Part shown: positions 35,177 through 55,621 of the stretch, in pieces
How positions within the stretch are numbered: position 1 is the stretch's first letter
How the letters are laid out: each line of letters starts with the position of its first letter
Source: an uncultured Actinomycetes bacterium
GTDB taxonomy: Bacteria; Actinomycetota; Thermoleophilia; UBA2241
Direction: 5' to 3'
Length of the DNA: 64,000 nt
NCBI GenBank assembly: GCA_963725665.1
Contig: CAVRZA010000011.1
Location: 160,001 to 224,000 of the forward strand
The notes under the pieces: generated by a model
Database searches by the model: none
Told to the model about the DNA's origin: nothing
What the model saw: the letters and a program-made list of their open reading frames with translations, nothing else
Made by a program: the position numbers and the translations under genes

Positions 35177-36382
35177 ATGAGCAGCGAACCTTCGCACATC
35201 GCCCCCTTCCACCCGCCCGAACGGACCCTGATGGGCCCCGGGCCCTCCGACGTCCCCGAGCGCGTGCTCGCCGCCATGGCGCGACCGACGATCGGCCATC
35301 TCGATCCAGCGTTCGTGGTCATGATGGAGGAGCTCAAGGAGCTCTTGCGCTACGCGTTCCAGACGCGCAACGAAGTCACGTTTCCCGTGTCCGCACCGGG
35401 GTCGGTGGGCATGGAGACATGCTTCGTCAACCTGGTTGAGCGGGGCGACACGGTGATCGTTTGCCGCAACGGCGTCTTCGGCGGACGGATGGTCGAGAAC
35501 GTCGAGCGTTGCGGCGGCACTGCGGTCGTGGTCGACGACCAGTGGGGACGACCCGTGACGCCGGAGAAGCTCCAGGCGGCGCTGCACGCCCACCCGGCCG
35601 CCCGCCTCGTCGCCTTCGTCCAGGCCGAGACATCGACCGGCGTGCTGACCGACCCCCGCCCGCTCGTGTCACTGGCCCACGAGCACGGGTGCCTCGCCAT
35701 CGTCGACACGGTGACGGCCCTCGGGGGGTGCGCCGTCGCGGTCGACGAGTGGGGCATCGACGCCGTCTATTCCGGCTCGCAGAAGTGCCTCTCCGTGCCT
35801 CCGGGGCTCTCGCCGGTCAGCTTCAACGAAGCCGCCCTGGCCAAGGTGCGCGCCCGCACGACGCGCTGCCAGAGCTGGTTCATGGACCTCGACCTCGTCC
35901 TCGCCTACTGGGGGTCGTCGACGCGCACCTACCACCACACCGCGCCCGTCAACGCACTCTACGGCCTTCACGAGGGGCTGCTCATGCTCGCCGAAGAGGG
36001 CCTCGAGGAGGCGTGGGGCCGCCACCAACGCCACCACGACGCCCTCGTCGCCGGCTTCGAGGCCATGGGTCTGGGCCTGCCCGTCGAGAAGCCACATCGC
36101 CTGCCGCAGCTCAACCTCATCCTAGTGCCAGTGGGGATCGACGAGGCGACGGTGCGCGCTCGGCTCCTGCAGGAGTTCGACCTCGAGGTCGGCGCCGGAC
36201 TGGGCCCGCTGGCGGGCAGGGTCTGGCGTGTAGGGCTGATGGGCCACGCAAGCCGGCCCGAGAACGTGCTGCTGTGCCTGCGCGGCTTCGAGGACGTGCT
36301 GCGCGACCTGGGGTTCGCGGCGCCCGCGGGCGAAGCCGAGCGGGCGGCGCGAAGCCTGCTCGACGCCGGGTCGCCGGGATGA
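35177..36382 (+). CDS. Class V aminotransferase (alanine/serine-glyoxylate aminotransferase; PucG-like)
   Basis: [35 protein letters not shown] and WRVGLMG motifs. Confidence 0.92.
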
Positions 36383-36435
36383 CGAGCCATCCGGGCGACG
36401 TTTCGTCCAGCCGACACCTTGGCCGGTGAGGCGGA

Positions 36436-36478
36436 GGAGAGGGGCGGGCGGTGCATGCCGCACCGCCCGCCCCTCTCC
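36436..36478. terminator. 19-bp hairpin between convergent genes
   Basis: ggagaggggcgggcggtgc-atgcc-gcaccgcccgcccctctcc. Confidence 0.7.
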
Positions 36479-36480
36479 CG

Positions 36481-37206
36481 TTACAGCTGCAGGAGCCGCC
36501 CGAACCCGAGCACCGGCTCACCGATGCCGGCGAGCCGCAACGCCTCCCAGAACGACGCCTGGTTGGCCGAGACGACCGGCTTGGCGAGGTCCTCCTCGAG
36601 CTCCTGGAGGATCGCCGCCGTGCGCAGGTTCGTGCAACTGATGAAGACGGCGTCGGCGTCGGGACGGTCGAGGTCGCGCGCCTGCGCGTAGACGCGCTCG
36701 GGCGAGGTGCGACCGATGTCGTGGTCGTCAGCGAAGCCGAGGCTGCTCGTGGCGAGCACCTCGAAGCCCTGCTCGGCGAAGTACGCGGCGCCGCGCGCGG
36801 TGACCTCCTCGAGATACGGGGTGGCGAGCACGATGCGCTGCGCCCCAACGGCGCGCAGGCCGTTCGCCGCAGCGCTGGCCGTTGTGGTCACCGGCAGCCC
36901 GCCGGTGGCCGCGCGCATCGTCTCGATGATGCGCTCGTCGTAGCTCTTGCCCTCGACGAAACTGCCGCTGGTGCATCCGAAGACCATGCTGTGCAAGGGA
37001 GCCATGGCGAGCACCCGCGCCGCCTCGGCCGTGCGCTCGGCGAGCTTGCGCAACTCCTCCACGGTGACGCGCGCAAGCTCGACGCGTGTCGTGTGGATAG
37101 ACACGCCCTCGGGCGTCATTGCGTAGCACTCCGGCTCCATGACGGTGCTGGTCGAGGTGTAGATGAGCCCTATCCGGGCCCGGTAGCCGTACAGGTCAGG
37201 CTGCAT
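36481..37206 (-). CDS. Maleate cis-trans isomerase / Asp-Glu racemase family protein
   Basis: FGCTSGS, TPY, FISCTNL and KPVVSANQA motifs (two catalytic Cys). Confidence 0.88.
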   Translation of the reverse strand: MQPDLYGYRARIGLIYTSTSTVMEPECYAMTPEGVSIHTTRVELARVTVEELRKLAERTAEAARVLAMAPLHSMVFGCTSGSFVEGKSYDERIIETMRAATGGLPVTTTASAAANGLRAVGAQRIVLATPYLEEVTARGAAYFAEQGFEVLATSSLGFADDHDIGRTSPERVYAQARDLDRPDADAVFISCTNLRTAAILQELEEDLAKPVVSANQASFWEALRLAGIGEPVLGFGRLLQL

Positions 37207-37402
37207 CAGTCCCCTCCACGAAGCGGTTGTACGGAGCTAGCTTCTGCGCCTCACGGCGAGCACGTCAAGCGCACGCGATCCCCCGGCCGCATCGCCTGTC
37301 AACTTGGTCCCGAGGGCGGTTAGGCGGTACCGTGATAGAAGAGACGCCGCGTCGGTGGAACTGCGGGGCACAACGACAACGACATCGAAGACCGAGGGAG
37401 AG

Positions 37403-38464
37403 ATGCAGGAGATCGTTCGCGAGACGCAGGCCCTACTGGGAGAGAGCGAGCCCTTTGCCCTGGTGACCCTCATCGCCGAGGAAGGGTCGACGCCGCGCGC
37501 CGCCGGCGCCGAGATGCTCGTGCGCGTGGACGGCTCGATCGCGGGGACCGTCGGAGGGGGACTGCTCGAGGCGACGGCGATGCAGCAGGCCCGCGTGGCG
37601 ATCGAGACGAGGCGCTCGACGGCGATCACCGTCGAGCTGACCGGCCAGAACGTCCAGGACGCGGCGATGCTCTGCGGGGGCCGGGCCCAGCTGCTCGTCT
37701 CATTCGTGCCCGCGGGTGACCGCGAGCTGTCGCGGATCTGCTCCGCTCTTGCGGCTGCTCTGGAGGCGGGTCGGCCGGCCCACTTGGTCACTGTGTTCGG
37801 CCCCGCCGGCTGCGGAGGAGGGTGCTTGGTCGCTCGTTCCCTGGTGGAGGACGGCGGTGTAGTGGCCGGCGCGTCGCTCGAACCCGCCATCCTGGCCGTG
37901 TCCCTCTCCGAGGGCTCCGGTGTGCACAACCGCGAGCTGCCCGACGGCCGCGAGCTTCATGCGGAGACCATCGAGCCGGTGCCGGTGGTGGTGATCTGCG
38001 GCGCCGGCCATGTGGGACAGGCGCTCGCTCCGGCGGCGGCCGCAGTGGGGTTCGACATCGTAGTCATCGACGATCGCCCCGAGTTCGCCTCCCGCGAGCG
38101 TTTCCCCATCAGTGCACGGCTCGTCGTCCCGCCCGATTTCGAGCGCGCCTTCGAGTCGGTCGAGCTAGGGACGCGCACCTACGTCGTGGTCGCGACGCGC
38201 GGCCACACGCACGATTTCACGGTCCTCGAGCAGGCACTGCGCACTGAGGCCGCCTACATCGGCCTCATGGCGAGCTCGCGCAAGCGCAGACGCTTCTTCG
38301 AGACGCTGCTCGAACGGGGGCGCACGGAGCAGGACCTGGAGCGCATCCACAGCCCCGTCGGCCTGGCGATCGACGCCGAGACGCCGGCCGAACTGGCCGT
38401 GAGCATCGTCGCCGAGCTGATCAAGGTGCGGGCGGAGTTGCGACAGGCGGCCTTGAGACGATGA
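37403..38464 (+). CDS. xdhC: XdhC/CoxI molybdenum cofactor insertion chaperone
   Basis: GSTPR.AGA, GTVGGG, CGG, GAGHVG, TRGH, YIG and PVGL...TPAELAVSI motifs. Confidence 0.92.
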   Translation: MQEIVRETQALLGESEPFALVTLIAEEGSTPRAAGAEMLVRVDGSIAGTVGGGLLEATAMQQARVAIETRRSTAITVELTGQNVQDAAMLCGGRAQLLVSFVPAGDRELSRICSALAAALEAGRPAHLVTVFGPAGCGGGCLVARSLVEDGGVVAGASLEPAILAVSLSEGSGVHNRELPDGRELHAETIEPVPVVVICGAGHVGQALAPAAAAVGFDIVVIDDRPEFASRERFPISARLVVPPDFERAFESVELGTRTYVVVATRGHTHDFTVLEQALRTEAAYIGLMASSRKRRRFFETLLERGRTEQDLERIHSPVGLAIDAETPAELAVSIVAELIKVRAELRQAALRR

Positions 38465-38491
38465 CATCGCTGCAACGGGCGGCGCCACAGC

Positions 38492-39712
38492 ATGGTAGCG
38501 CCGCGACGGTCGGAGCGTAAGGCGGGTCCGGTGAGCGGTCCGCGCTTTGCGGCCGTCGTGCTGGCCGGCGGGCGCTCGTCACGCTTGCCACCGCTCAAGC
38601 CCCTCCTGCCCGTCGACGGCGTCCCGGCCGTCGTGCGCACAGCGAGTACCTTCGGCGACGTAGGAGTCGAGCCGCTCGTCGTGGTCGGCTTCGCAGCCGC
38701 TGAGCTCGTTCCCGTACTGGAGGCCGCCGCCCTGCACTACGCCGTCAACGAGGACTACGACCGTGGCATGTACTCGTCGCTCGTGACCGGAGTGCGGGCG
38801 CTCGGCGAAGCCGGCGGTGGAACATGCGACTGGCTCTTCGTCCAGCCTGCCGACTGCCCGCTGGTACGCGGCGAGACGATCGGCCGCCTGATGCGCGCGG
38901 CCAGAGGCGCGGGGCGCGGGGCGGCGCGCCCTGAGGGCGCGCCGCCCCGCGCCCTCATCCCGACTGCTCATGGACGGCGCGGGCACCCGCCACTGCTGTC
39001 GGCCGGGCTGCTGCCGGCCGTCCTGAAGCGTGAACCACCTGGCGGTCTGCGTACGCTGCTCGACGACCTCGGCGACGAAATCGGGGAGGTGCCGGTCGAC
39101 GATGAAGGCGTGCTTCTCGACATGGACGACGCCGAAGGCTACGCACGTGTCGAGAGACACGCCGTGCTCGAGAGGCTGCCCGACACAGACGCCTGCGAGG
39201 CGCTCCTGCGACGTCGCGCTACGCCGCCGGCGGTGGTCGCCCACTCGCGGGCCGTGCGCGACGTCGCCCTGCGCCTCGCGCGCGCGGCCAACGCCCAGGG
39301 CCTCGGCATCGATCTCCACCTGCTGGAAGCCGCGGCGCTCACCCACGACGTCGCTCGTGAGCGACCCGACCACGCCGCGGCGGCCGCGGCCGTGCTCGAG
39401 GCCGAGGGCTACCCGCGCGTGGCATGCGTCGCGCGTCACCACATGAGCCTCCCCGGACTACCTTCGGACCCGCCGGGCGAGAGGGAGCTCCTCTACCTTG
39501 CCGACAAGCTGGTGCGCGACGAGACGGTCGTGACGCTAGACGAGCGCAAACGAGAGGCTGCGGCGCGTTTCAGCGCTCCGGAGGCTCAGGCTGCGGCGGC
39601 TGCTAGGCTGCAGGCGGCCGGCGTCGTAGCACGCTCTCTCGAGCGCGCGACCGGCCGCCCGCTGGCGGACCTACTGGCCGAGCCGCCGCCCAACCCCGGC
39701 GGTCGCCCATGA
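38492..39712 (+). CDS. MocA-like nucleotidyltransferase fused to an HD domain
   Basis: LAGGRSSR, GMYSS, QPADCP, GHPP and DMDD motifs; C-terminal AHS...HD...HHM...ADK. Confidence 0.85.
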   Translation: MVAPRRSERKAGPVSGPRFAAVVLAGGRSSRLPPLKPLLPVDGVPAVVRTASTFGDVGVEPLVVVGFAAAELVPVLEAAALHYAVNEDYDRGMYSSLVTGVRALGEAGGGTCDWLFVQPADCPLVRGETIGRLMRAARGAGRGAARPEGAPPRALIPTAHGRRGHPPLLSAGLLPAVLKREPPGGLRTLLDDLGDEIGEVPVDDEGVLLDMDDAEGYARVERHAVLERLPDTDACEALLRRRATPPAVVAHSRAVRDVALRLARAANAQGLGIDLHLLEAAALTHDVARERPDHAAAAAAVLEAEGYPRVACVARHHMSLPGLPSDPPGERELLYLADKLVRDETVVTLDERKREAAARFSAPEAQAAAAARLQAAGVVARSLERATGRPLADLLAEPPPNPGGRP

Positions 39713-40455
39713 GCGCCCGCCTCCCGGAGCTGCTTGCCTGTGACCTCGACGGCACCCTCATCGACGAGGCCGGCCGGCCGCATGCCGGGGTCCCCGAGGC
39801 GCTCGCCTCACTGGTGGCCGTCGGCGTGCCCCTGGCCGTCTGCAGTGGGCGCCCGCTGTACGCGGCGCAGCACCGAAGCGAGCGTCTGGGGGCGGTCCCG
39901 CGTGCGTTCATCTGCTACCACGGGGCGCTCGTCGTCGACACGGCCACGGACGCGTGGCTGCAGCACCTGACGGTGCCGCAGCCACGCGTCCTCGCCGTCA
40001 CTGCCGACGCGCTGGAGGCCGGGCTCTCGGTGACCCTCTACATCGGTGATGAGCGCGTCGAGCTCCCCGCCGAGCCCAAGCGGATCCCCGCCTTGCCCGG
40101 CCCGGTGACTCGGATCATCCTCACGGGCGAGCCGGCCGTGCTCGACGACGCCTTACCCTCACTCAGGAGACGCTGGGGTGAAGGCCTGCGCGTAGAGCGC
40201 GCACACCCGTCGGTGATCGACGTGCTCGACGGACGCGCCGACAAGGGAGCGGCGCTCGCCTTGCTTGCCGCGCACCTTCAGATCTCCCTTGCAGGCGTCG
40301 TCGCGTGCGGCGACTCGCGCAGCGACGTCTCGTTGTTGCGGGCCGCCGGCAACGCGGTCGCGGTCGGCGACGCACCCGACCAGCTGCGGCGCGTCGCCAA
40401 GACAGTCGTCGCGCCCGACCACCTGGCGGCCTTCCTCCTCTCCCTGCTCCGGTAG
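39709..40455 (+). CDS. Cof-type HAD hydrolase
   Basis: CDLDGTL, SGR, DKG and CGDSRSD motifs. Confidence 0.88.
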   Translation: MSARLPELLACDLDGTLIDEAGRPHAGVPEALASLVAVGVPLAVCSGRPLYAAQHRSERLGAVPRAFICYHGALVVDTATDAWLQHLTVPQPRVLAVTADALEAGLSVTLYIGDERVELPAEPKRIPALPGPVTRIILTGEPAVLDDALPSLRRRWGEGLRVERAHPSVIDVLDGRADKGAALALLAAHLQISLAGVVACGDSRSDVSLLRAAGNAVAVGDAPDQLRRVAKTVVAPDHLAAFLLSLLR

Positions 40456-40609
40456 CCTCTGACGGGGGCATGCCGAACGGAAGCCGGTCATCGCCGCATC
40501 CCGCACTCTGCCGTCGATCCCCGGCCTCCCGCCTCGCTCCACACTCGCCGTCGACCGCCGGCCTTGGCGCCGGGGGGCACTCGCCGCTTCGACCAAGCCA
40601 CCGGCCGGG

Positions 40610-40655
40610 TGTGCAGCTGCCCACGACCCCCCGGCAGAAGTGTGCATTCACCCAG
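40610..40655 (+). promoter_or_regulatory. Putative PucR/CdaR-family operator (tandem TGTGCA...CCCA boxes 31 bp apart)
   Basis: TGTGCAGCTGCCCAC at 40610 and TGTGCATTCACCCAG at 40641; similar boxes at 47142/47173 and 49734. Confidence 0.55.
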
Positions 40656-40834: not shown

Positions 40835-41452
40835 ATGAAGACAGAGACCAGCGTGGACGCCCGCGAACGCATCGTCGTGCCTGCCCGCGAAGGCAGAGGG
40901 GTGCGCATCGCAAAGGGCCAGTCGTTCCGCATCGTCGACCTCGAGGGCTCCCAGGTCGGCGATCTGTTCGCCTTCAACGCCGACGATGTACGCGAGTACC
41001 ACAGCGCCCACCACACGCGCGCCGTCGTCGATCGGCTGTTCCCCGTACCCGGAGAGCGGTTCCAGAGCAACCTGCGCCGGCCGATCATGACCTTCGTCGC
41101 CGACGACAGCCCCGGCATCCACGACATGCTCATCGCCCCCTGCGACCCCGCGCGCTTCGAGCAGCTGGGGGTGCAAAGCTGGCACGCTTCGTGTCAGGAG
41201 AACCTGCAGATGGTGATGGCCGGCTTCGGCTTTCCCGACGTCGTCGTGCCGCAGTCGATCAACCTCTTCATGAACATCCCGGTGCGACCCGATGGGACGA
41301 TCGACTGGCTCCCTGCGCCCACGAAGGCGGGCGACTCCGTCACCATGCGCGCTGAGATGGACTGCTACATCGTGCTCTCGGCCTGTCCCCAGGACATCAT
41401 CGTGATCAACGACAAGGCGCCGTCGCCGATGGCGATCGACGTGCTCGACTGA
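40835..41452 (+). CDS. DUF1989 / urea carboxylase-associated family protein
   Basis: IVDLEGSQVGD, HDM...C, SCQENL, NLFMN and SACPQD motifs. Confidence 0.9.
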   Translation: MKTETSVDARERIVVPAREGRGVRIAKGQSFRIVDLEGSQVGDLFAFNADDVREYHSAHHTRAVVDRLFPVPGERFQSNLRRPIMTFVADDSPGIHDMLIAPCDPARFEQLGVQSWHASCQENLQMVMAGFGFPDVVVPQSINLFMNIPVRPDGTIDWLPAPTKAGDSVTMRAEMDCYIVLSACPQDIIVINDKAPSPMAIDVLD

Positions 41453-41489
41453 CCGCCCATCGAGAAGAGGGACCTTCGAGGAGGCGCAG

Positions 41490-42395
41490 ATGAGGAAGAG
41501 GTTCGAGTACCTGAGACCCGCCACGGTCGAGGAGGCCTGCGACTTCAAGTCGCGCTATGGAGCGGGCGCTCGCTTCCTCGCCGGTGGGACCGACCTGATC
41601 CACGACTGGCGTCGCGAGCAGGTCTCGTTCGACTACTGCATCGACCTGACCTTCATCCCCGGTCTCGACTCCTTCGAGTGGAACGGGGAGCACCTGCGCG
41701 TCGGGTCCCTGGCCAAGCTGTCAACGATCGCCGCGGCGGCGGCGGAACCCGGCCTGCCGGGCTTCTTGGCCTCCGGCGCGCGCCGCATGGGCACGCCCCA
41801 GATCCGCAATCTGGCGACTGTGGGCGGCAACATCTGCCACGCCTCGCCCTGCGCCGACATGGCCGTCATGTTGACGGCACTCGACGGCGAGGCACAGCTG
41901 CAGTCGAGCCGCGGCAGCAGGTCGCTGCCGTTGCGCGAGTTCTTCAAGGGTGTCAACGAGACCGGCGTGGCGGACGATGAGCTGCTCACGGAGGTCCTCG
42001 TGCCGATCCCAGCGGCCCGTACCGAGGCCTCCTACCAGCGCGCCACGCGCACAAGCGTCGACCTCGCCCAGGCCAGCGCGGCGGTCTGCCTGAGCACGGA
42101 CGACGGCACGACCGTGAGCCGGGCGCGCATCGCGATAGGCGCCTGCGCGCCGGTCCCTGTGCGCTCCGATGCCGCCGAGGAGATCCTCGTCGGCCTCGAC
42201 CTGAACGACCGCGACCGCGAGACCATCGAGCTGGCGGCCTCGCGGGCGGAGTGGGAGACGAGCCCGATCTGCGATATCCGCGGCTCCGACGAGTACCGGC
42301 GCGAGGTGAGCAGGGTCCTCGTGCGACGCGCCGTCGAAGACTGTCTGGCGAGAGCTGGTCGGCGTCCCGGCGTCGGTCTAGGAGGGAGTGCACCC
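41490..42395 (+). CDS. Molybdenum hydroxylase FAD-binding (medium) subunit; reads in frame into the small subunit
   Basis: AGGTDL, QIRNLATVGGN, ASPCAD and DIRGSDEYR motifs. Confidence 0.88.
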
Positions 42396-42863
42396 ATGGC
42401 GACGCTACACGTGAACGGATCGGTGCACGAGCTCGACATCGAGCCGCACGAGACCCTCTCCGAGGTCTTGCGCGAGAAACTCGGCCTGCGCGGGGTGAGG
42501 GTCTCGTGCGGCGAAGGCGAGTGCGGCTCGTGCACCGTGCTCCTCGACGGCCGCCCCGTCACCTCATGCCTGATGCTGGCGCTGCAGGCCGAGGGCAAGG
42601 AGGTCACGACTATCGAGGGCCTAGGCACCGAAGACGATCTGCACCCGATACAGCAGGCGTTCATCGACGAGCAAGGCTTTCAGTGTGGGTTCTGCACGCC
42701 CGGGGTGATCCTGAGCACGAAAGCCTTCCTCGAGACCAATCCCGACCCCACCCCTGCCGAAGCGGCTGCGGCCCTCACCGGTCACATCTGCCGCTGTGGG
42801 GCCTACCCGCACATCGTGCGCTCTGTGATCCACGCGGCGCATCAGAACGGAGGCCCCTCATGA
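42396..42863 (+). CDS. Molybdenum hydroxylase 2x[2Fe-2S] (small) subunit
   Basis: GGAGGGAG RBS; CGEGECGSCTV, QCGFCTPG and ICRCG motifs. Confidence 0.9.
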   Translation: MATLHVNGSVHELDIEPHETLSEVLREKLGLRGVRVSCGEGECGSCTVLLDGRPVTSCLMLALQAEGKEVTTIEGLGTEDDLHPIQQAFIDEQGFQCGFCTPGVILSTKAFLETNPDPTPAEAAAALTGHICRCGAYPHIVRSVIHAAHQNGGPS

Positions 42864-47140: not shown

Positions 47141-47141
47141 T

Positions 47142-47187: not shown

Positions 47188-47349
47188 CGGTTCGCCACGG
47201 CCCTCGGCCCTAGATTGCGGACGACGACACGAGTGGCGGTGCGCGACGCCACGGCCGCGACGCAGCGCGACGACTGAGGCGCAGGCGAGCGGGCCGGTGG
47301 CCGGCACGGACGGACCGTGCGCGCGGGCCGCTGGGGAGGTAGGTGGTCG

Positions 47350-48054
47350 ATGAGCGCAAGCGGATCGGACGGCCGCGCGGCCGTGGTCACCGGTGCCACG
47401 GGGGTGATCGGCGGTGCGGTCGTCGCTCGCCTGCAGGCCGAGGGCTTCACCGTTGCCGGTCTGGACCTGGGACACGGCGGCGGCGACCTGTCGCTCGTGG
47501 TCGACGTGACCGACCGCGAGGCGATGAGAGCCGCCGCCGAACGAGTCACACGGGAGCTGGGCACCATCGAGGTGCTCGTCACCGCACACGGCTACCACGC
47601 CGCCGCCGCCTTCGGTGAGATGAGCCGCGACGACTGGCGGCGGCTGCTCGACACGCACCTGGGAGGCACGGTCAACGCCTGCGCCGCGGTCGTCCCCGGC
47701 ATGGTCGCCGCGGGACTGGGCACGGTCGTGACGACGTCCTCGTGGATCGCCCTCGCCGGCGTGCCGGGCGAGGCCTACTACGCGGCCGCGACCGGCGCCA
47801 TCCTCGCCTTCACCAAGAGCTTCTCGCTCGAGGTGGCGCCCAAGGGGGTACGCGTGAACTGCATCGCCATCGGGCCGGTCGAGACAGGCACGGGAGCGAA
47901 GAGCTTCAGCCCCGGCCAGCCGGCGCCGGCGGAGCTGCCGCTGCGGCGGTACGTCACGCCTGAGGAGATCGCCGACACGGTCTCCTTCCTCATCAGGGAC
48001 GGCGACTTCATGGTCGGCCAGGTCTTCACGCCGGCCGCCGGGGCGGTGGTCTGA
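47350..48054 (+). CDS. SDR oxidoreductase lacking the catalytic Lys (YxxxT)
   Basis: TGATGVIG, YYAAATG and VRVNCIAIGP motifs. Confidence 0.85.
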   Translation: MSASGSDGRAAVVTGATGVIGGAVVARLQAEGFTVAGLDLGHGGGDLSLVVDVTDREAMRAAAERVTRELGTIEVLVTAHGYHAAAAFGEMSRDDWRRLLDTHLGGTVNACAAVVPGMVAAGLGTVVTTSSWIALAGVPGEAYYAAATGAILAFTKSFSLEVAPKGVRVNCIAIGPVETGTGAKSFSPGQPAPAELPLRRYVTPEEIADTVSFLIRDGDFMVGQVFTPAAGAVV

Positions 48055-48055
48055 C

Positions 48056-48817
48056 ATGGGCGTGCTCGAAGACACCGTCTGCCTGGTCACCGGCGCCGCG
48101 CAGGGCATCGGCAAGGGCATCGTGATCCGCATGGCCCAGGAGGGCGCCCGTGTCGCGGTGAACGCGCGCCTCGACGACGCCCGGCTCACGGCCGTTGTCG
48201 ACGAGATGGGCGGTTACCCGGCGCCCTTCGACATCGCCGACCCCGACGCCAACAGGGCCATGGTCGCGGACGTGGAGGCCAGTCTGGGTCCCATCGAGGT
48301 GCTCGTCTGCAACGCGGCGCGCATGACCATGATGCCCTTCCTGGAGCAGCCGCCGGAGCAGTGGTGGGAGCAGATCCGCGTCAACCTCACGGGGCACATG
48401 GACCTCATCACCAAGGTCCTCCCCGGCATGCGCAAGCTGGGCCGTGGCAGGATCGTCCTCATCAGCTCGCTCTGGGGACCGATCGGCTGGGAGAACGCCA
48501 CCGGCTACGCCTCGACCAAGTCGGCGCTGATCGCGCTCGGGCGCTCGCTCGGAAAGGAGCTCGCGCCCGAGCACATCTACGTGACCGTCGTGGCACCGGG
48601 GATCATCGACACCCCCCAGCTCCAGGTCGACGCCGACGACGCCGGCGTCACGCTCCAGGAGATGCACGCCATCTACGCCAAGAACATCCCCGCGGGTCGC
48701 ATCGGCACGCCCGACGACGTGGCGCGCGCGGTCGTCTTTCTCTCGACCGAGACCGCCGGCGCCTACGTGGGGCAGACCCTCCATCCGAACGGTGGTGAGA
48801 TCAGATGCTCGATGTGA
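48056..48817 (+). CDS. SDR oxidoreductase
   Basis: TGAAQGIG, CNA and YASTK motifs. Confidence 0.9.
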   Translation: MGVLEDTVCLVTGAAQGIGKGIVIRMAQEGARVAVNARLDDARLTAVVDEMGGYPAPFDIADPDANRAMVADVEASLGPIEVLVCNAARMTMMPFLEQPPEQWWEQIRVNLTGHMDLITKVLPGMRKLGRGRIVLISSLWGPIGWENATGYASTKSALIALGRSLGKELAPEHIYVTVVAPGIIDTPQLQVDADDAGVTLQEMHAIYAKNIPAGRIGTPDDVARAVVFLSTETAGAYVGQTLHPNGGEIRCSM

Positions 48818-49857
48818 ACGCCACGTGGCGCTACGCGCCGGTGCAGGCCTGGAAGGGCGACGCGGCGGCGCTCGCGATCCTCAGCTTCGACGTCGACGCC
48901 GAGACGCCGCTGCTCGCCGCGGGGGAGAAGTACACGCAGCACCTCTCGACGATGTCGCACCAGGCCTACGGGCCGACAATCGGCGTGCCGCGCATCATCA
49001 GGATGCTGGCGCGGCACGGCAAGCCAGCGACGTTCTTCGTCCCCGGCTGGACGGCCGAGCACTACCCGCGCTGCATGGAGGCGATCCTCGAGTCGGGGCA
49101 CGAGATCGCCCTGCACGGCTACACGCATCGCCCACCCTGCTACAACACCGCCGACGAGCAGCGCGCCGAGATCGAGAAGGGGCTCGCCGCCTTCGAGAAG
49201 TTCGGCGTCAAGCCCTTCGGCTACCGCGCCCCGATGTGGCAGACGTCGAAGCACACGCTGGAGATGCTGGGTGAGTACGGCATGCGCTACGACTCCTCCC
49301 TGATGGACGACGACCGGCCCTACCTGCTCGACACACCCTCTGGGCGGATCGCCGAGATGTGCCCCCAGTGGTACCTCGACGACTGGGAGCAGTACGTCTA
49401 TGTGCCCGATCCCGACATGGGGGCGACCATCAACCGACCCAGCGTCGTCGCCCAATTATGGATCGAGGAGCTCGAAGGCGAGCGCGAGACGGGCTCGCTG
49501 CTCATGCTCACCTGCCACCCCTTCGCCAGCGGCCGGCCGGGACGCATCAAGGCCATCGAGAAGCTGATCGACTTCGCCGACGAGTGCGGGGACGTGGCCT
49601 TCACGCGCGCCGACGAGCTGGCGCGCAAGCTGCTGGCGGTACCCGACGCCGCAGCTCAGCGACGAGCGGCCGGAGTGAACCGCCGACTTGCGGCGACGAG
49701 CGGTGTGCAGGAGCTGAGCGTCCTGCAGGAAGTGTGGGCACCTGCACCTCGCCACGATGGAGTCCCGAGCCATATGCTCACGGCGAATAGGTACAAACGG
49801 TGGCCGAAGCGGGTATCTTGTCGAGCGTTGTCCCGCCTCTCGGAGGAGGTGCCGTAA
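48805..49857 (+). CDS. Polysaccharide deacetylase / PuuE-like CE4 hydrolase (true end probably near 49680)
   Basis: SFDVDAE, YG, TFFVPG, HEIALHGYTH, GYRAP, YDSS, DDW and HP motifs. Confidence 0.85.
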   Translation: MLDVNATWRYAPVQAWKGDAAALAILSFDVDAETPLLAAGEKYTQHLSTMSHQAYGPTIGVPRIIRMLARHGKPATFFVPGWTAEHYPRCMEAILESGHEIALHGYTHRPPCYNTADEQRAEIEKGLAAFEKFGVKPFGYRAPMWQTSKHTLEMLGEYGMRYDSSLMDDDRPYLLDTPSGRIAEMCPQWYLDDWEQYVYVPDPDMGATINRPSVVAQLWIEELEGERETGSLLMLTCHPFASGRPGRIKAIEKLIDFADECGDVAFTRADELARKLLAVPDAAAQRRAAGVNRRLAATSGVQELSVLQEVWAPAPRHDGVPSHMLTANRYKRWPKRVSCRALSRLSEEVP

Positions 49858-49949
49858 GCGATGCGCTTGACATCGTCTCGCAAGGCTACCGACCACCCGG
49901 CGCCGCCGGCGCCGGATCTTACGTCGCAATCCAGACAAGGGGGACTGCA

Positions 49950-51482
49950 TTGAGTGACATCACGGCCCCGCCGCGGGGCAACTCAGGCGAGGCGGAGGCT
50001 CAGAGACTAGGCTACAAGCAGGAGCTGAGGCGCGAGTTCGGCTTCTTCCACGCGTTCGCCATCAGTTTCGCCGACACGTCGCTGATCGTCGCCTTCTACG
50101 GCTCCTTCGCGCTGGCACTGGGGGCGGCAGGCCCCACCTTCTTCTGGGGCATGATCGCCGTCCTGCATCTTCCAGATCCTGGTCGTCCTCGTCCTCGGCG
50201 AGGTGTCCAGCCGCTACCCGCTCGAGGGCGGCATCTACCAGTGGACACTCGAACAGACGGGGGCCACCTCCGGGTGGTTCTCGGCCTGGGCGTACTGGTG
50301 GACGATGGTCTTCACCATGACGAGCTGCGCCTATGCGTCGGCGAGCTTCCTGCTGCCCGGCCTCGGCTTCGACACCGCGGACGAAGGGCTGGTTCATCGC
50401 CGTCGCGGCCGTCATCGTGCTCTTCGGCCTCGCCATCAACAGCATCGCACAGTGTGATCCTCAAGGTATTCGTGACCATCCTGCTCATCGCGGAGGTGAC
50501 GACCACCATCGGCCTCTCCTTGGTGTTCTTCTTCGGCTACCGGGAACACGGCTTCAGCACCTTGTTTCACTCCTTCAACACCGCCGGCAACAGTACGTTC
50601 AACTGGGTCTGGATCGGCTTCTTCGGCGCCATCGCCTTCATGGGCTGGACGTTCCTAGGCTTCGAGGCGGCAGGCTCCATCGCCGAGGAGGTACACGAGC
50701 CGGCCAAGAACGTGCCGCGGGCGATGATCGCGGTGTGCGTCGGCATCGGCATCATCACGCTGTTCGTCACGGTCGCCTTCATCCTCGCCATCCCCAACAT
50801 CAGCGACGCCATGACGGGCAACATCGCCGACCCCGTGATACAGACGCATCACCTTCCACCTCGGCACCGGCTATCGAGAAGCCGCTGCTCGATCATGATC
50901 TCGCTCGGCTTCATGGGCAGCATGGTGGCCTTGCACATGGCGGGCTCGCGCACTCTGTACTCATTCGGGCGCGACAAGATGATCCCCGGCTCGAGCTATG
51001 CCACCATCCTGAGCAAGAACCGCAAGCTCCCGTGGGTGGCCCTCAGCTTCACCTCGGCCATCTCGATCGTCATCCTGCTCGTCAACATCGGCGCGGAGCG
51101 GGTGTTCACGACGCTGTTGCAGATCTCGGCCGCCGGCTTCTTCATCTCGTACGGCTTCGTCGTCATCTCGCAGTTGGTGACGCATATCAACAAGCGTCAC
51201 TCGCACGGGCCGTTCAGTCTGGGCAGGTGGAGCTACCCCATCACGTGGATCGCCTCGGTCTGGATCGTCTTCGAGATCATCAACCTGATGTGGCCGCGCA
51301 GCGCCGTCGCTCCCCTGGTACCAGAACTGGGGCGTGATCACGATCACGGCTGTCCTGACCGTCGCCGGCGCTATCGTGTTCCTCGTCGTGCCGAAGGAAG
51401 GGGGACACGTCGGGCGAGCCGCCCAAGGAGGAGATCGCCGAAGGCGCGGCCTTCGCCGATCATCCGGCCGATTGACGCCTGA
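49950..51482 (+). CDS. APC family amino acid permease (several frameshifts)
   Basis: LGYKQELRR, SRYPLEGGIYQW, GFEAAGSIAEE, SRTLYSFGRD and GPFSLGRW motifs across shifted frames. Confidence 0.85.
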   Translation: MSDITAPPRGNSGEAEAQRLGYKQELRREFGFFHAFAISFADTSLIVAFYGSFALALGAAGPTFFWGMIAVLHLPDPGRPRPRRGVQPLPARGRHLPVDTRTDGGHLRVVLGLGVLVDDGLHHDELRLCVGELPAARPRLRHRGRRAGSSPSRPSSCSSASPSTASHSVILKVFVTILLIAEVTTTIGLSLVFFFGYREHGFSTLFHSFNTAGNSTFNWVWIGFFGAIAFMGWTFLGFEAAGSIAEEVHEPAKNVPRAMIAVCVGIGIITLFVTVAFILAIPNISDAMTGNIADPVIQTHHLPPRHRLSRSRCSIMISLGFMGSMVALHMAGSRTLYSFGRDKMIPGSSYATILSKNRKLPWVALSFTSAISIVILLVNIGAERVFTTLLQISAAGFFISYGFVVISQLVTHINKRHSHGPFSLGRWSYPITWIASVWIVFEIINLMWPRSAVAPLVPELGRDHDHGCPDRRRRYRVPRRAEGRGTRRASRPRRRSPKARPSPIIRPIDA

Positions 51483-51515
51483 CACGCACACGACCTAGAC
51501 AAGCGACGAGACGCA

Positions 51516-51637
51516 GGGCGTGCGGGCGAGCCGGGAGGCTCGCCCGCACGCCCCCTCGTGCCACAACGAGCGGCACGACGTGAACAGGAGTCGCCGGCGC
51601 CGGGTGGCCTTCAAGGCCACCCGGCGCCGGCGACTCC
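51516..51637. repeat. Three consecutive intergenic inverted repeats (17, 7 and 25 bp)
   Basis: 17-bp stem at 51516-51553; 7-bp stem at 51556-51578; perfect 25-bp arms around one central base at 51587-51637. Confidence 0.85.
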
Positions 51638-51657
51638 CTCCAGCGAAAGGAGCGCGA

Positions 51658-52413
51658 ATGGCAGAAGGCAGACTGGCAGGCCGCGTGGCTCTCATCACCG
51701 GCGGCAGCCGCGGCATCGGTGCCGCGATCGCGAAGGCATTCGCTCGCGAGGGGGCCAGGGTCGCATTCACCTACCACAAGCGCGCAGACGCGGCGCGCGA
51801 GGTCGTCGCGGTGATCGAGGCCGCCGGAGACGAGGCGCTCGCCATCCAGGCCGACGCCTCGCAGGTCGACGACGCCAGGCGCGCCGTCGACGAGACGGTG
51901 CATCGCTTCGGCCACATCAACATCCTCGTCAACAACGCCGGCGCCATCGGCGCCGAGTACACGGTGCAGGACATGCCCGTCGAGGAGTGGGATCGGCTTA
52001 TCGGCACGGACCTGCGCGGTGTCTTCCTGGCGACGAAGTTCGCCTTGCCGCACATGAAGACCGACCCGGTCGGCAAGATCATCAACATCAGCTCAGAGCT
52101 GTCGATCAAGGGTCGCCCGACGCAGGCCCACTACTGCGCGGCGAAGGGCGGCATCAACGGCTTCACGCGCGCCCTCCAGTGGGAGGTGGGGCCGGGCATC
52201 TGCGTGAACAGCCTGGCGCCCGGCCCGATAGCGACCGACCTCATCCTCGCCGACATGACGCCGGAGTGGATCGAGAAGGAGAAGGACATCCTCGCCGGCC
52301 GGCTCGGTGAGGTCGAGGAAATCGCGGAGCCGGCGGTCATGCTGGCCTCCGACGAAGGCAACTTCTTCATGGGTCAGTTCATCAGTCCCAACGGCGGCGC
52401 CGTCTTCACGTGA
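51658..52413 (+). CDS. SDR oxidoreductase
   Basis: TGGSRGIG, NNAG and YCAAK motifs. Confidence 0.92.
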   Translation: MAEGRLAGRVALITGGSRGIGAAIAKAFAREGARVAFTYHKRADAAREVVAVIEAAGDEALAIQADASQVDDARRAVDETVHRFGHINILVNNAGAIGAEYTVQDMPVEEWDRLIGTDLRGVFLATKFALPHMKTDPVGKIINISSELSIKGRPTQAHYCAAKGGINGFTRALQWEVGPGICVNSLAPGPIATDLILADMTPEWIEKEKDILAGRLGEVEEIAEPAVMLASDEGNFFMGQFISPNGGAVFT

Positions 52414-52513
52414 GCCGCGAGGGACCGCGACCCAGAAAAGGCAGTGAACACCAGCACGCAGGGTGCCCTGTGACCGATGTGCACGCGCCTCTGGCGCCCG
52501 AAAGGGGTTGACG

Positions 52514-53571
52514 ATGATCACTGAAGGGCTCAAGGGACGCGACTTCATCACCCTGCGCGACTTCACCAGGGCCGAGATCGAGACCATGCTCGACGTGGGC
52601 CTCAAGCTCAAGGCGGACAGCGCGATGCGCGTCCGCCACCAGGACGTGCTGCCCGGACGCACGCTGCTGCATGATGTTCTTCAACCCCTCTCTGCGCACA
52701 CGCAACAGCTTCGAGGCCGGCATCTTCCAGCTCGGCGGGCACGCGCACTTCCTCGAGCCCTCCGCCACGCGCCTGCCCACCCTCGAGGGTGAGGACGTGC
52801 CCTATCAGTCGGAGCGCATCGCCGACGTCGCACGCGTGCTCTCGCGCATGGGCGACGCCATCGCCATCCGCATCCTGGGCGGCGCCGTCGACTGGCAGTA
52901 CGAGAAGTCGCTGCGCATCATCGAGGAGTTCGCCACGTACTCGAAGGTGCCGGTCATCAACATGGAGGACAACAAGTACCACCCCAACCAGGGCATGGCC
53001 GACGCGATGACGCTCTGGGAGCACCTCGGGCGCGACCTGCGCGGGCGCAAGCTGGGCGTCTCCTGGACCTACTCGCCCTCCACCAAGAAGCCCATCGCCC
53101 CGCATCACGACTTCATGTACGCGGCCAGCTTCTTCGGGCCCGACATCGTCTTCGCCCACCCGCCCGAGCTGCGCATCGACCCCGACGTCGGAGCAGGCGA
53201 TCAAGACCAACCTCGAGGCCAACGGCGGCTCCTACGAGGTCGTCGACGATATGGACGCCGCCTGCGAGGACGCCGACGTGGTCTACGCCAAGAACTACGT
53301 GGCGCTTGACCTGCTGCCTCCCGTGACGGCCGAGCCGCAGCACGACGAGATGGCACGCCTTTTCGAGAAGTACCGCGGTTGGATCGCCGACGAGCGGCGC
53401 ATGAGGCTCGCCAAGAAGACCGCCTTCTACATGCACTGCCTGCCCTGCGAACGTGGCTACGAGGTCGCCGATGCGGTGCTCGACGACCCGCAGTGGGGTA
53501 CGCCCTGCTACGACGAGGCCGAGAACCGGCTGCACGCGCAGAAGGGCGTCATGGCCTGCATCATCCCCTGA
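52514..53571 (+). CDS. Carbamoyltransferase, YgeW/AOTCase-like, copy 1 (frameshifts near 52665 and 53190)
   Basis: FFNPSLRTR, HPNQ, WTYSPSTKKP, HCLPCERGYEV and EAENRLH motifs. Confidence 0.88.
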
Positions 53572-53681
53572 AGGAGCCGGCCGGCTCGCGAGCGCGCCGC
53601 GCTCGATGTCCGCTGCAGGGCGGCGAGAGCCGACGCCATTGAAGACCCCGCAAGAGGAGACCACCGAGGAGGGTGTCAAGC

Positions 53682-54729
53682 ATGCAGACGACCTCACTGA
53701 AGGGCCGTGACTTCATCGCCATCTCCGACTTCACCAGAGAGGAGATCGAGACGATCCTCGACACGGCCTTCGAGCTCAAGCTCGAGCGGGCCCGCGGTGT
53801 GCGCCACCATCTGCTCGAGGACGCCACGCTCTACATGATGTTCTACAACAAGAGCCTGCGCACTCGGAACAGCTTCGAGACCGGCATCCACCAGCTCGGC
53901 GGCCACGCCATCTACCTCGACTCCAACGCCGTCTACACACCGGCCGTCGAGGGCAAGGAGCAGGCCTTCGTGACCGAGCGTCTCGACGACGTCGCCAAGG
54001 TGCTCTCGCGCTACGGCGAGGCGATCGCCATCCGCATCTTCGGCGACCCCGTAGGCTGGCTGCACGGCGAGGCCAATGCCTACATGCGCGCCTTCGCCGA
54101 GGCCGCCGACATCCCCGTCATCAACATGGAAGACGACATGTACCACCCCTGCCAGGGCATCGCCGACCTGATGACGATGAAGGAGAAGCTGGGCAGCCTC
54201 GAGAGACGCAAGGTCGTCGTGAGCTGGGCCTACTCGCCCTCGCGCAAGAAGCCCGTCAGCGTGCCGCACTCGATGATGCAGGTGAGCTCGCTCTTCGGGG
54301 CCGACGTGGTCTTCGCCCGCCCGCACGGTTTCGAGCTCGATCCGGCGCAGATCGCGAAGGCCAAGGACAACGTCTCGCGCTACGGCGGCTCGTTCGAGGA
54401 GACCGACGACATGCGCGCCGCCTTCGAGGGCGCCGACGTGGTCTATCCCAAGTGCTGGCCGGCCATCCAGTTCATGGCCGGGCCCGGCAAGGAGGCCGAC
54501 TGGGAGGCCCAGGATGAGCTCTTCGAGGCCAACCGAGGCTGGATCGCCGACGAGGAGATCATGAAGCTCACGAAGCGCGACTGTCTCTACATGCACTGCC
54601 TGCCCTGCGACCGCGGCTATGAGGTGACCGACGCCGGTCATCGACGGTCCTCACTCCGTGGTCTACGACCAGGCCGAGAACCGCATGCACGGCCAGAAGG
54701 CCGTCATGGCGCTCACCATGAGGGGATGA
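53682..54729 (+). CDS. Carbamoyltransferase, YgeW/AOTCase-like, copy 2 (frameshift near 54635)
   Basis: [38 protein letters not shown] and QAENRMH motifs. Confidence 0.88.
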
Positions 54730-54738
54730 GGCTCCACC

Positions 54739-55621
54739 ATGGCTGACGAGACGAGGACGCGCGGCGAAGAGCTGCGCCAGTACAACGCCTGCGGACCGCG
54801 TGCGCAAGCTCCTGCTCTGCCCGCCCGACCTACTACCGCGAGCTCGAGATCTCGGAGATCGCCCACCGCACGGTCCAGGGCGGCGAGGTCGTCGACCTGC
54901 GTGTCGCCGAACCCGATGCACGAGGGTCTGGCGCGGGCCCTCGAGGAGGCCGGCATCGAGCTCGCCTGGGAGGAGCCGCACCCCGACCACGCCTGGCAGG
55001 TCTACACGCGCGACTTCGGCGTCAACACGCCGGCCGGGGTGCTGATCGGCAAGTACCGCTACGAGCCGCGCTGGGGCGACGAGGAGTTCGCCATCGCGGC
55101 CCTGACGAAGCTCGGCGTCGACATCGCCGGTCGCGTGTCTCGGGGCGCCGTCGAGGGCGGCGACTGCTGGCTGCTCGACGAGTCGACGCTCGTCATCGGC
55201 GCCGGCAACCGCTCCAACCTCGAGGGCATCGAGAACGCCGCCGAGATCCTGCAAGCCGCACGGCATCGACGTGGTGCCAGTGGAGTTCGACCCCACGTGG
55301 AACCACCTCGACATGATCTTCCGCGTGCTCGCAGAGAAGCTCGCTATGTACGGCGAGGCCGGTCTGCCGGCGAGCTACGTGCGCTTCCTCAAGGACTGCG
55401 GCTGGCGGCTCATCCCCCTGCCCGAGGAGCAGGTCATGAAGACGGGCTGCAACGTACTCGCGCTCGGTGAGGGACGCATCCTCTCCTTCGCCGAGAACGA
55501 GGCCGTCAACGAGCTGCTCGTGGCCGAGGGCTTCGCGCTCGTGGCGCCGCCGCTGCGCGAGTTCACCAAGATGGGCGGCGGGCCGCACTGCCTGACCTTC
55601 GAGGTGCAGCGCGACCGGTAG
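54739..55621 (+). CDS. Amidinotransferase-fold (pentein) deiminase/DDAH-like protein (frameshifts)
   Basis: YTRD, R..E, VEGGD, HLD, CN and GGGPHCLT motifs. Confidence 0.85.

Follow-up and report, generated by a model that had tools for sequence, protein, structure and literature searches.

A PucR-associated gene cluster, probably for catabolism of a guanidino compound, in an uncultured member of the Thermoleophilia

The arginine deiminase (ADI) and agmatine deiminase (AgDI) pathways each combine a deiminase, a catabolic ornithine or putrescine carbamoyltransferase, carbamate kinase and an antiporter. The guanidino carbon is the point of attack for both ureohydrolases and penteins, with the former releasing urea and the latter leaving a ureido group; the agmatinase-family enzymes GpuA (guanidinopropionase) and GbuA (guanidinobutyrase) release urea from guanidino acids, and CgdAB (DUF1989) deiminates carboxyguanidine in the guanidine carboxylase route. 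Reductive pyrimidine catabolism (Pyd) uses dihydropyrimidine dehydrogenase (DPD), dihydropyrimidinase and beta-ureidopropionase to yield beta-alanine. Here we describe a gene cluster that was compared with these systems, located from position 35177 onwards in a 64,000-nucleotide stretch of DNA (the window; contig CAVRZA010000011.1, positions 160,001 to 224,000; 70% G+C) from an uncultured bacterium of the Thermoleophilia. The genome holding the window (G000) comprises 3.73 Mb in 12 contigs; other genomes, contigs and loci are named by our handles (G, C and L numbers) where needed.

Two further described systems share features with the cluster. The reductive uric acid pathway of E. coli, in the part of its account available to us, includes XdhD-YgfM, YgfK, SsnA, HyuA, YgeW, YqeA, YgeY and YgeX, combining a xanthine dehydrogenase (XDH) homolog, a reductase, ring-opening amidohydrolases, the knotted-type carbamoyltransferase YgeW and carbamate kinase, with some lineages swapping phosphorolytic for hydrolytic cleavage (bioRxiv 10.1101/2025.05.19.654654). 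The accessible portion of a second report describes UGTCase (ureidoglycine carbamoyltransferase) of Rubrobacter xylanophilus, a catabolic carbamoyltransferase encoded beside carbamate kinase that phosphorolyses a nucleobase-derived ureide (PMC4016543).

An initial annotation of the window had described the genes at 35177-55621 as one island for an N-heterocyclic or guanidino compound. Our analysis favors, with a probability of roughly 0.58, a PucR-controlled catabolic regulon for a guanidino (amidino) compound, most likely a ring compound, with ATP harvest. The locus is best described as a PucR regulon in which a widespread uncharacterized cassette is joined by an ATP-yielding deiminase branch specific to the lineage and by a Mo-hydroxylase front end that is rare.

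A recurrent cassette and its guanidino-directed branch

Gene models were built from third-position G+C and then tested with Pfam and NCBIfam, and gene neighborhoods were sampled in about 1150 of 199,900 genomes. Every family named in the initial annotation was present at its place; a set of frame breaks had escaped it, and the cluster reaches further, to a 145-aa small membrane protein (55719-56156, +) with weak EamA likeness that is conserved beside a short-chain dehydrogenase/reductase (SDR) gene, SDR3. The central genes, all on the plus strand and assigned by Pfam, encode SDR1 (47317-48054), SDR2 (48056-48817), a CE4 hydrolase of the PuuE/3rxz type (48805-49857), an APC-family permease (about 49930-51472) and SDR3 (about 51667-52413), which has an intact YxxxK motif. 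The permease-SDR1-SDR2-CE4 core was observed in Thermoleophilia relatives, in other Actinomycetota and on plasmid 1 of Rubrobacter radiotolerans, often with PucR. The SDR1-SDR2 pair was kept with CE4 across Actinomycetota (52-56% identity in R. radiotolerans), and a more diverged agmatinase-SDR-SDR-CE4 set was observed on a Roseovarius plasmid (CE4 35% identical). A CE4 search of 401 genomes of the phylum returned strong matches in 14.

In the closest relatives (G012 and G010) the order was DUF1989-SDR1-SDR2-CE4-permease-SDR3-small protein-CTase1-CTase2-pentein, where CTase1 and CTase2 are two carbamoyltransferases, with neither hydroxylase nor PucR between DUF1989 and SDR1. Three genomes of other genera (G327, G236, G348) had PucR-permease-SDR1-SDR2-CE4-pentein-SDR3-small protein, with CTase2 between CE4 and pentein in G236 only. 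A scan of metagenomes yielded 65 loci. In 23 of these, on contigs of 1.5-17.8 kb, the pentein reached 59% identity or more. With alignments shorter than 100 residues disregarded, the partners of the pentein on these 23 contigs were CE4 (14), CTase2 (8), SDR3 (7), SDR2 (7), the small protein (6), carbamate kinase (5), PucR (1) and a Mo-hydroxylase subunit (1). Where the kinase was present the order was CE4-CTase2-pentein-carbamate kinase-SDR3-small protein, with SDR3 conserved after the pentein or after the kinase in orthologous modules. The cluster is therefore a composite of three layers, namely a conserved core, a lineage-specific branch of pentein, carbamoyltransferase and carbamate kinase, and rare add-ons (DUF1989, the second carbamoyltransferase, and the Mo-hydroxylase with its maturation genes). 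Gene co-occurrence elsewhere was thus found for the core and not for the whole set, which was found nowhere else in the genomes searched. Families, their co-occurrence and their replacement by other enzymes between lineages were all observed directly.

The strongest evidence for a guanidino-bearing substrate came from such a replacement. An agmatinase-family ureohydrolase held the place of the pentein in G653, G505 (twice), G080, R. radiotolerans plasmid 1 and the Roseovarius plasmid, scoring 195-246 bits against the TIGR01230 cut-off of 174. The substrate therefore very probably bears a guanidino or amidino group, judged from these sequence comparisons, and this half of the initial proposal was upheld. 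A third arrangement, with PucR, DUF1989, an OYE flavin reductase, CE4 and an amidase, was observed on Nocardia and Streptomyces plasmids, where DUF1989 orthologs of 54-56% identity adjoin CE4; DUF1989 and CE4 were also neighbors in G629, with PucR present.

The pentein (guanidino-group-modifying) hydrolase (54739-55621, +) matched PF02274 and PF19420 and contained the GGGPHC cysteine motif. This motif, NHLDM and EGGD were conserved in eight aligned homologs and in the window fragments, indicating by motif conservation that the gene encodes a protein built as a competent enzyme. Its nearest solved relatives are the arginine dihydrolases ArgZ/Sll1336, no PAD_porph domain was found in it, and an ESM Atlas look-up returned only generic "arginine deiminase / DDAH family" clusters. 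In a search of 401 genomes of the class, pentein matches were observed in 100, with six besides this genome at 60% identity or more. The same search found paralogs of about 40% identity in many genomes of the same family; on another contig of G000 (G000:C3:86297-88350, L082) and in L083, a DDAH-like pentein 40% identical to that of the module adjoins a canonical ornithine carbamoyltransferase and a "putative cyclase".

We considered whether the cluster could be an arginine, agmatine or citrulline deiminase pathway in disguise, consisting of pentein, catabolic carbamoyltransferase, carbamate kinase and antiporter. The logic of pentein, carbamoyltransferase, carbamate kinase and APC permease is the same, and the ureohydrolases replacing the pentein exceed the agmatinase cut-off. 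However, the pentein scored 47.8 against 489 for arginine deiminase (TIGR01078, arcA) and at most 62 against 300-340 for dimethylargininase, the carbamoyltransferases fell below the ornithine, putrescine and N-acetylornithine carbamoyltransferase cut-offs, and the genome has both the separate pentein and canonical ornithine carbamoyltransferase on contig C3 and an ornithine carbamoyltransferase with carbamate kinase on contig C4. As the conserved SDR-SDR-CE4 trio would also be left unexplained, we regard this explanation as highly improbable.

Both carbamoyltransferases, CTase1 (about 52469-53568, +) and CTase2 (53673-54746, +), lie directly upstream of the pentein, were assigned by Pfam and have conserved carbamoyl-phosphate motifs (SxRTR, HPxQ, HCLP). 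Their closest solved family is N-acetylornithine carbamoyltransferase (AOTCase), with scores against the NF003384 cut-off of 288 of 257.7 for G012 CTase1, 286.5 for G012 CTase2 and 239.5 for the window CTase2. They remained under every curated cut-off, including the YgeW models (99-168 bits against 453-500; TIGR03316, 99-151 against 500). CTase2 is the carbamoyltransferase that accompanies the pentein and carbamate kinase in other genomes. The proposed carbamoyl-phosphate and ATP chemistry gained support from the kinase, observed inside the orthologous module in the five metagenome contigs and, in G012, as a second copy about 370 bp from DUF1989 and transcribed divergently. No carbamate kinase was found in the window; the one in this genome is on another contig (G000:C4:415692-416618; 415 bits, cut-off 358), adjoining a canonical ornithine carbamoyltransferase, an M20 deacylase and a decarboxylase. 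The suggestion that the pathway is anaerobic found no support, with cytochrome bd oxidase genes near this kinase and homologous cassettes on plasmids of Rubrobacter, Nocardia and Streptomyces.

CTase1 orthologs of 68-88% identity were observed at 58 loci from Thermoleophilia, Acidimicrobiia, many Chloroflexota, Armatimonadota and a Spirochaete MAG, with carbamate kinase within the sampled flanks of 21. These loci hold allantoinase (AllB), ureidoglycine aminohydrolase, an ATCase-like enzyme, a KARI-like enzyme, FixC/ETF, a ThiO-like oxidase and GcvT. A purine or allantoin variant was weighed, in which an XDH-family enzyme leads to urate, the PuuE-like CE4 opens allantoin, and the carbamoyltransferases phosphorolyse ureides (allantoate, ureidoglycolate, oxalurate). 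The Chloroflexota and Acidimicrobiia neighborhoods, the PucR-family regulator and the weak match of CE4 to PuuE (66.9 bits, cut-off 425; structure 3cl6, 65 bits) are consistent with it, and the available part of one report gives a precedent for allantoate phosphorolysis (PMC4016543). In contrast, no uricase, HIU hydrolase, OHCU decarboxylase, allantoate amidohydrolase or ureidoglycine aminohydrolase was found among the cluster translations, the XDH models were far under their cut-offs (pucD, 330 against 784), and the exchange of agmatinase and pentein, together with a context of MmsA, aminotransferase and alanine dehydrogenase genes described below, favors a guanidino compound ending as a beta-amino acid. 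We consider the purine variant quite unlikely.

Two other gene sets containing CTase1 were observed. A conserved cluster in Chloroflexota, the Spirochaete MAG and Acidimicrobiia (L024, L036, L064, L021, L039) combines it with hydantoin racemase, an ATCase-like enzyme, AllB, ureidoglycine aminohydrolase, a KARI-like enzyme, FixC/FixX/ETF, a ThiO-like oxidase, carbamate kinase and GcvT, and looks like a seemingly undescribed allantoin route with two phosphorolytic steps. Four metagenome loci (L147, L148, L150, L153) bring together CTase1 (77%), carbamate kinase, a true creatininase and two penteins (42-43%), and may encode a deiminase pathway that yields ATP from creatinine/creatine. A role for CTase1 as oxamate carbamoyltransferase was rejected except as convergent function, as the E. 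coli enzyme is of a different family, AllFGH according to the part of the source available (PMC11326118).

Proposed route and candidate substrates

We infer the chemical steps that follow, and the identity of the substrate, from the gene families and their contexts. The permease would import the compound and the SDR1/SDR2 pair, a candidate ring reductase or dehydrogenase, would alter the redox state of the ring. CE4, a candidate ring-opening amidohydrolase, would then open the cyclic amide, and the pentein would turn the guanidino group thus exposed into a ureido group. Phosphorolysis of the ureide by the AOTCase-like carbamoyltransferases would give an amine and carbamoyl phosphate, from which carbamate kinase, encoded elsewhere in the genome, would form ATP, CO2 and NH3. 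The DUF1989 protein, a candidate deiminase of an acyl-guanidine, may offer a second way of deimination, and the Mo-hydroxylase, matured by XdhC and the MocA-HD protein, may act as a lineage-specific front end hydroxylating a less oxidized ring. We rejected a biosynthetic reading in view of the permease, a regulator of catabolic type, the substitution by a ureohydrolase and the tie to carbamate kinase.

Three lines of context bear on the substrate. The first concerns the end product. The Rubrobacter operon, which has the agmatinase version, begins with MmsA (TIGR01722, 609 bits, cut-off 448.5), alanine dehydrogenase and a class-III omega-aminotransferase, and L113 has the same trio (MmsA, 532 bits) upstream of pentein-CTase2-carbamate kinase, the two sets standing on either side of a transporter gene and a transposase. 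Beta-alanine or 3-aminoisobutyrate is normally metabolized through these three enzymes, and their presence suggests that the guanidino acid is likely 3-guanidinopropionate or a methyl homolog. The second concerns ring opening, which is suggested because CE4 is of the PuuE kind, an opener of cyclic amides, and because the pentein subfamily is found elsewhere beside creatininase, an opener of cyclic acyl-guanidines. That creatininase (TIGR04448, 305 bits, cut-off 235) lies between distant homologs of the pentein, with CTase1 and carbamate kinase nearby.

The third concerns transport and reduction. NCS1 "cytosine"/nucleobase-type permeases occur in L081, L088, L098 and L105, such permeases replace the APC permease in several versions of the cassette, and the Nocardia version also carries a "cytosine permease". 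Three unrelated reductases were observed beside CE4, namely the SDR pair, the OYE enzyme of Nocardia and Streptomyces, and, in G001, a PreT/PreA DPD fusion that stands with CodA (cytosine deaminase) beside a CE4-pentein pair. Ring character of the substrate is suggested by the CE4 type, the permeases and the reductases. At the metagenome locus L105 (4038-13664), the NCS1 permease, SDR2, CE4 and pentein are followed by an adenine-deaminase-like amidohydrolase (421.6 bits, cut-off 472.5), a cyclase and formiminotransferase, and in L146 a formiminotransferase precedes the pentein.

As a working hypothesis, the most parsimonious substrate is a six-membered cyclic acyl-guanidine (isocytosine- or dihydroisocytosine-like) converted to 3-guanidinopropionate and on to beta-alanine; a sequence from isocytosine through dihydroisocytosine to 3-guanidinopropionate would fit the end-product, ring-opening and transport/reduction lines. 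A guanidino alcohol degraded oxidatively, a creatinine-like ring of five members and a ring derived from 2-aminopurine are possibilities as well. It is possible, though doubtful, that the window holds the ATP-yielding version of a widespread undescribed pathway in which a cyclic acyl-guanidine nucleobase analog is reduced by the SDRs, or in other lineages by OYE or DPD, and opened by CE4 to 3-guanidinopropionate. Most lineages would then release urea with a guanidinopropionase-like enzyme, and these Thermoleophilia would use a new "3-guanidinopropionate deiminase" (the pentein) and a new "beta-alanine carbamoyltransferase" leading to carbamate kinase, with the Mo-hydroxylase perhaps extending the range to 2-aminopyrimidine-type rings.

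Hydroxylase, regulation and integrity of the locus

The Mo-hydroxylase (41490-45307, +) has the features of the XDH family, with Ald_Xan_dh_C and MoCoBD_1/2, FAD_binding_5 with CO_deh_flav_C, two 2Fe-2S domains, and XdhC and MocA genes nearby. It reached no NCBIfam equivalog cut-off, and its nearest solved structures are 4-hydroxybenzoyl-CoA reductase, CO dehydrogenase, PaoC and quinoline oxidoreductase. Three subunits had been proposed, and the corresponding domains are present; in this assembly, however, the FAD and 2Fe-2S parts form a single 457-aa open reading frame (ORF; 41490-42863) before the Mo large subunit (about 42860-45307), giving two ORFs. The FAD-then-Fe-S order is unusual for fused hydroxylase subunits. 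In G018 these parts are two ORFs in different frames with a 34-nt overlap (L095, 11171-12567). One single-base assembly error could create the fusion, and its reality is uncertain because the assembly is indel-prone.

Upstream lies an operon (37304-40455, +) for Mo-cofactor (cytidylyl-MoCo) maturation factors and a Cof-type phosphatase. It encodes XdhC (37304-38464, +; NF045664, XdhC_rel_AOR, an aldehyde-oxidoreductase-type maturation factor, 344.5 against 350), a MocA-like NTP-transferase fused to an HD domain (38492-39712, +; NF045665, DVU_1551 family, 320.9, above the cut-off of 315) and a Cof-type HAD protein (39709-40455, +), the start of which overlaps the MocA-HD stop. Before it are an Amdase/EutA-like protein of the Asp/Glu-racemase clan (36481-37206, minus strand; Pfam and NCBIfam), under the cut-offs for EutA (187 against 318) and arylmalonate decarboxylase (132 against 225), and a convergent class-V aminotransferase (35177-36382, +), with a perfect 19-nt hairpin separating the two. 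The Amdase/EutA-like gene is the one called maleate-isomerase-like in the initial annotation. The best NCBIfam match of the aminotransferase was the aspartate-glyoxylate aminotransferase BhcA (197.7 bits, cut-off 650), and its place in the pathway is uncertain; weak homologs were observed near CTase1 (L072, 49%), SDR1/SDR2 (L088, 39%) and a pentein-carbamoyltransferase-carbamate kinase set (L146, 31%).

These upstream genes and the hydroxylase might be chance neighbors with an unrelated oxidative role, acting for instance on an aldehyde or aromatic N-heterocycle, with PucR through the small protein alone forming one pathway. The genes at 35177-40455 showed no synteny in any relative examined, including with the module in G012, G010, G327, G236, G348 and G018, among 300 other genomes of the class we found a close ortholog of the Mo large subunit in one alone (G018), and the models matched by the maturation genes were originally linked to aldehyde oxidoreductase. 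Together with the lack of the full gene set elsewhere, these observations do not sustain the original view of a single island. In the one genome with the ortholog (71-72% identity), however, the hydroxylase directly precedes SDR1-SDR2. Hydroxylase subunit genes also adjoin CTase1 in four Acidimicrobiia loci, with a CE4 homolog following in two (L060, L045) and an arginase-family gene accompanying CE4 in L060, and the same sequence box precedes the DUF1989/Mo-hydroxylase and SDR units. We judge the chance neighborhood unlikely, and the regulon reading retains the hydroxylase as a rare front end.

The DUF1989 protein (40835-41452, +; Pfam, 167.6 bits) is a relative of carboxyguanidine deiminase and of urea-carboxylase-associated proteins (UAAP), remained under the UAAP cut-offs (TIGR03424, 103.5 against 284.7; TIGR03425, 70.6 against 206), and has as its closest solved structure 3oru, of unknown function. 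The PucR-family regulator (45476-47140, +) contains PucR sensor, GGDEF-like and HTH_30 domains (Pfam), and its orthologs (45-47% identity) head the module in G327, G236, G348 and L111. An element of about 40 nt is common to the regions before DUF1989 and right after the PucR stop codon. The 12-mer GTG[TG]GCAnCTGC, allowing at most one mismatch, had eight matches in the 64 kb, six of them at three sites of the cluster. The first is a palindromic operator-like box, GTGTGCAGCTGCCCAC (40609-40624), which lies upstream of DUF1989 and is followed after about 29 nt by a second half-site. The second (47141-47183), directly after the PucR stop and before SDR1, has three copies with one mismatch each, and the third (49734-49745) is an exact match between the conserved end of CE4 and the permease. 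Relative G236 has two exact units in its PucR-permease spacer, and none was found in the corresponding module spacers of G012, G010, G327 and G348, with few one-mismatch matches elsewhere there. The shared boxes reported earlier are thus real but modest, consistent with a putative co-regulation of the DUF1989/Mo-hydroxylase, SDR and permease units; the chance estimate of two matches against 0.21 expected is circular because the pattern was derived from the same sites.

A repeat search placed perfect hairpins 3' of the aminotransferase/Amdase pair, the Mo large subunit (15 nt; 45376-45407) and the permease (two). Their positions suggest the units XdhC-MocA-HAD, DUF1989-hydroxylase, PucR, SDR1-SDR2-CE4, permease, and SDR3-CTase1-CTase2-pentein-small protein. 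A consensus scan gave no excess of promoter-like (1) or terminator-like (5) sites over shuffled sequences (0.8 and 5.4 expected). Among public sequencing runs no RNA run matched, and the best DNA run shared 0.16 of the sampled words.

The stretch 49.9-55.6 kb contains at least nine frame changes, in contrast to 35.2-49.7 kb, in which we saw none. Relative to intact G012 orthologs there were five in the permease, two in CTase1, one near the end of CTase2 (near 54635) and one in the pentein (near 55254), which also has an out-of-frame N-terminal stretch. This distribution could mean that the lower half (permease, both carbamoyltransferases and pentein) is a decaying pseudogene array with no present function. 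Near-identical public contigs (3-6 mismatches over 227-313 bases; region 49800-56200), however, lacked exactly one base at five break sites (49916, 50165/50166, 50383, 52670, 53196), the breaks in G012 and G010 fall in other genes of this module, as expected of indel-prone assemblies, and amino acid identity to G012 remained 78-97% across the broken genes. A homopolymer origin was rejected, with the break sites not within long G/C runs. Because of the one-base differences and the different genes broken in the relatives, assembly error appears likelier than decay, and we consider a dead array very unlikely; the near-identical contigs derive from other samples and so are no proof. An indel may also have removed the CE4 stop codon. 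The ORF extends about 60 codons beyond the ends of its orthologs, covering the third operator-like box, and the true stop is probably at about 49680, where the conserved part ends, because only residues 1-283 align with orthologs.

Several observations weigh against the regulon reading, in addition to the rarity of the hydroxylase ortholog. CTase1 and DUF1989 were found in none of the 23 orthologous metagenome contigs and the Mo subunit in a single one, and the module occurs without any carbamoyltransferase in G327, G348 and L106. The carbamate kinase lies outside the window, beside a canonical ornithine carbamoyltransferase, and G236, which has CTase2 in its module, has no carbamate kinase above the cut-off (genome completeness 92%). 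SDR1 has YxxxT in place of the catalytic YxxxK (YxxxR in G236) and a degenerate NNAG motif, with orthologs outside this family retaining the lysine; SDR1 may therefore assist SDR2 without being catalytic itself, and the SDR step may run in either direction. The kinship with ArgZ/Sll1336 means that the pentein could remove the whole amidino group alone. The 12-mer motif was defined post hoc, the frame breaks, if real, would leave this organism with a dead lower pathway, and the substrate is conjectural within a pathway drawn from sequence comparison.

Other gene sets were observed in the window. A heterodisulfide-reductase-like set (536-7367) encodes 4Fe-4S-domain proteins, two MvhD/FlpD domains and a 939-aa HdrA-like flavoprotein fused to FlpD, and is followed by a ParE/Phd toxin-antitoxin pair (7412-7992). 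IS110-family transposase genes of 404 aa occur at 17355-18569 and on contig 4 of the genome (L085, 12833-14047), the latter about 1 kb from the ornithine carbamoyltransferase/carbamate kinase locus; with identical Pfam scores, they are probably copies of one element. On the minus strand, the region 60063-63949 contains a homolog of nickel-pincer-nucleotide-dependent ornithine cyclodeaminase (TIGR00300, 540.5 bits, cut-off 410.8) that also matches the C-terminal half of bifunctional ArgZ. It is followed by an EamA transporter, an SDR and an M20 peptidase, the last 55% identical to the M20 protein beside the carbamate kinase of the genome.

Comparison with described pathways

If the regulon reading is correct, a function would be assigned to a conserved cassette of two SDRs, a PuuE-like CE4 and an amidino-removing enzyme in Actinomycetota and on an alphaproteobacterial plasmid. 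Deiminase/carbamoyl-phosphate routes, which make ATP by substrate-level phosphorylation, would gain a third substrate family, and two AOTCase-like carbamoyltransferase clades a catabolic role. One step would be filled by three unrelated solutions, namely a ureohydrolase, a pentein with a carbamoyltransferase, and DUF1989 with an amidase. Versions of the cassette are present in cultured strains, namely Rubrobacter radiotolerans (plasmid 1), Nocardia sp. NBC_00511 and Streptomyces anthocyanicus, making the question directly testable.

The initial view that the cluster matches no characterized pathway one-to-one agrees with our comparisons. No published account of an SDR-SDR-CE4 cassette or of such a pentein/AOTCase-like pair was found in the literature searched, with subscription journals and supplements outside its scope. 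With Pyd the cluster shares a proposed order of steps, in which a ring is reduced and opened, a C1-N unit is removed, and beta-alanine is handled by aminotransferase and MmsA, and the DPD and CodA genes of G001 add to this likeness. Unlike Pyd, none of the three canonical enzymes is present in the cluster (best PreA of the genome, 217.9 against 335), and since the enzymes that would remove the C1-N unit belong to guanidino-specific families, a 2-amino (guanidine-type) ring is suggested rather than uracil. The cluster differs from the GpuA/GbuA route in having a pentein in place of the ureohydrolase, and from the CgdAB route in having a single DUF1989 gene below the UAAP cut-offs and no urea/guanidine carboxylase in the window. 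From PucR-controlled purine catabolism in Bacillus it is set apart by the scores for pucE (171 against 254) and pucC (54 against 306) in addition to those for pucD and PuuE given above, and no uricase or allantoate amidohydrolase domain was found among the cluster Pfam matches.

The likeness to the reductive urate pathway of E. coli, as far as the available part of that account describes it, lies in the overall design, the phosphorolysis of a ureido group and the lineage-dependent swap of cleavage mode (bioRxiv 10.1101/2025.05.19.654654). No homolog of SsnA, HyuA, YgfK, YgeY or YgeX was found in the cluster by Pfam, and in the described part of the E. coli pathway the pentein, CE4, DUF1989 and SDRs do not figure, with no orthologous enzyme in common beyond general families. 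UGTCase, in the accessible portion of its report, is ATCase-like, in contrast to the AOTCase-like enzymes observed here, and its R. xylanophilus cluster has uricase, allantoinase and related genes (PMC4016543).

The ADI and AgDI pathways resemble the cluster in that the pentein adjoins a carbamoyltransferase and an APC permease is present here, with carbamate kinase within the orthologous module elsewhere. The choice between ureohydrolase and pentein routes among lineages likewise parallels that between agmatinase and agmatine deiminase with putrescine carbamoyltransferase. In contrast to these pathways, the pentein and both carbamoyltransferases stay below the curated models for arginine deiminase, dimethylargininase and the ornithine, putrescine and N-acetylornithine carbamoyltransferases, the carbamate kinase is not in the window, and the SDR-SDR-CE4 trio, DUF1989 and the Mo-hydroxylase have no counterpart there. 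Based on this comparison, we regard the cluster as an undescribed variant of deiminase/carbamoyl-phosphate catabolism.

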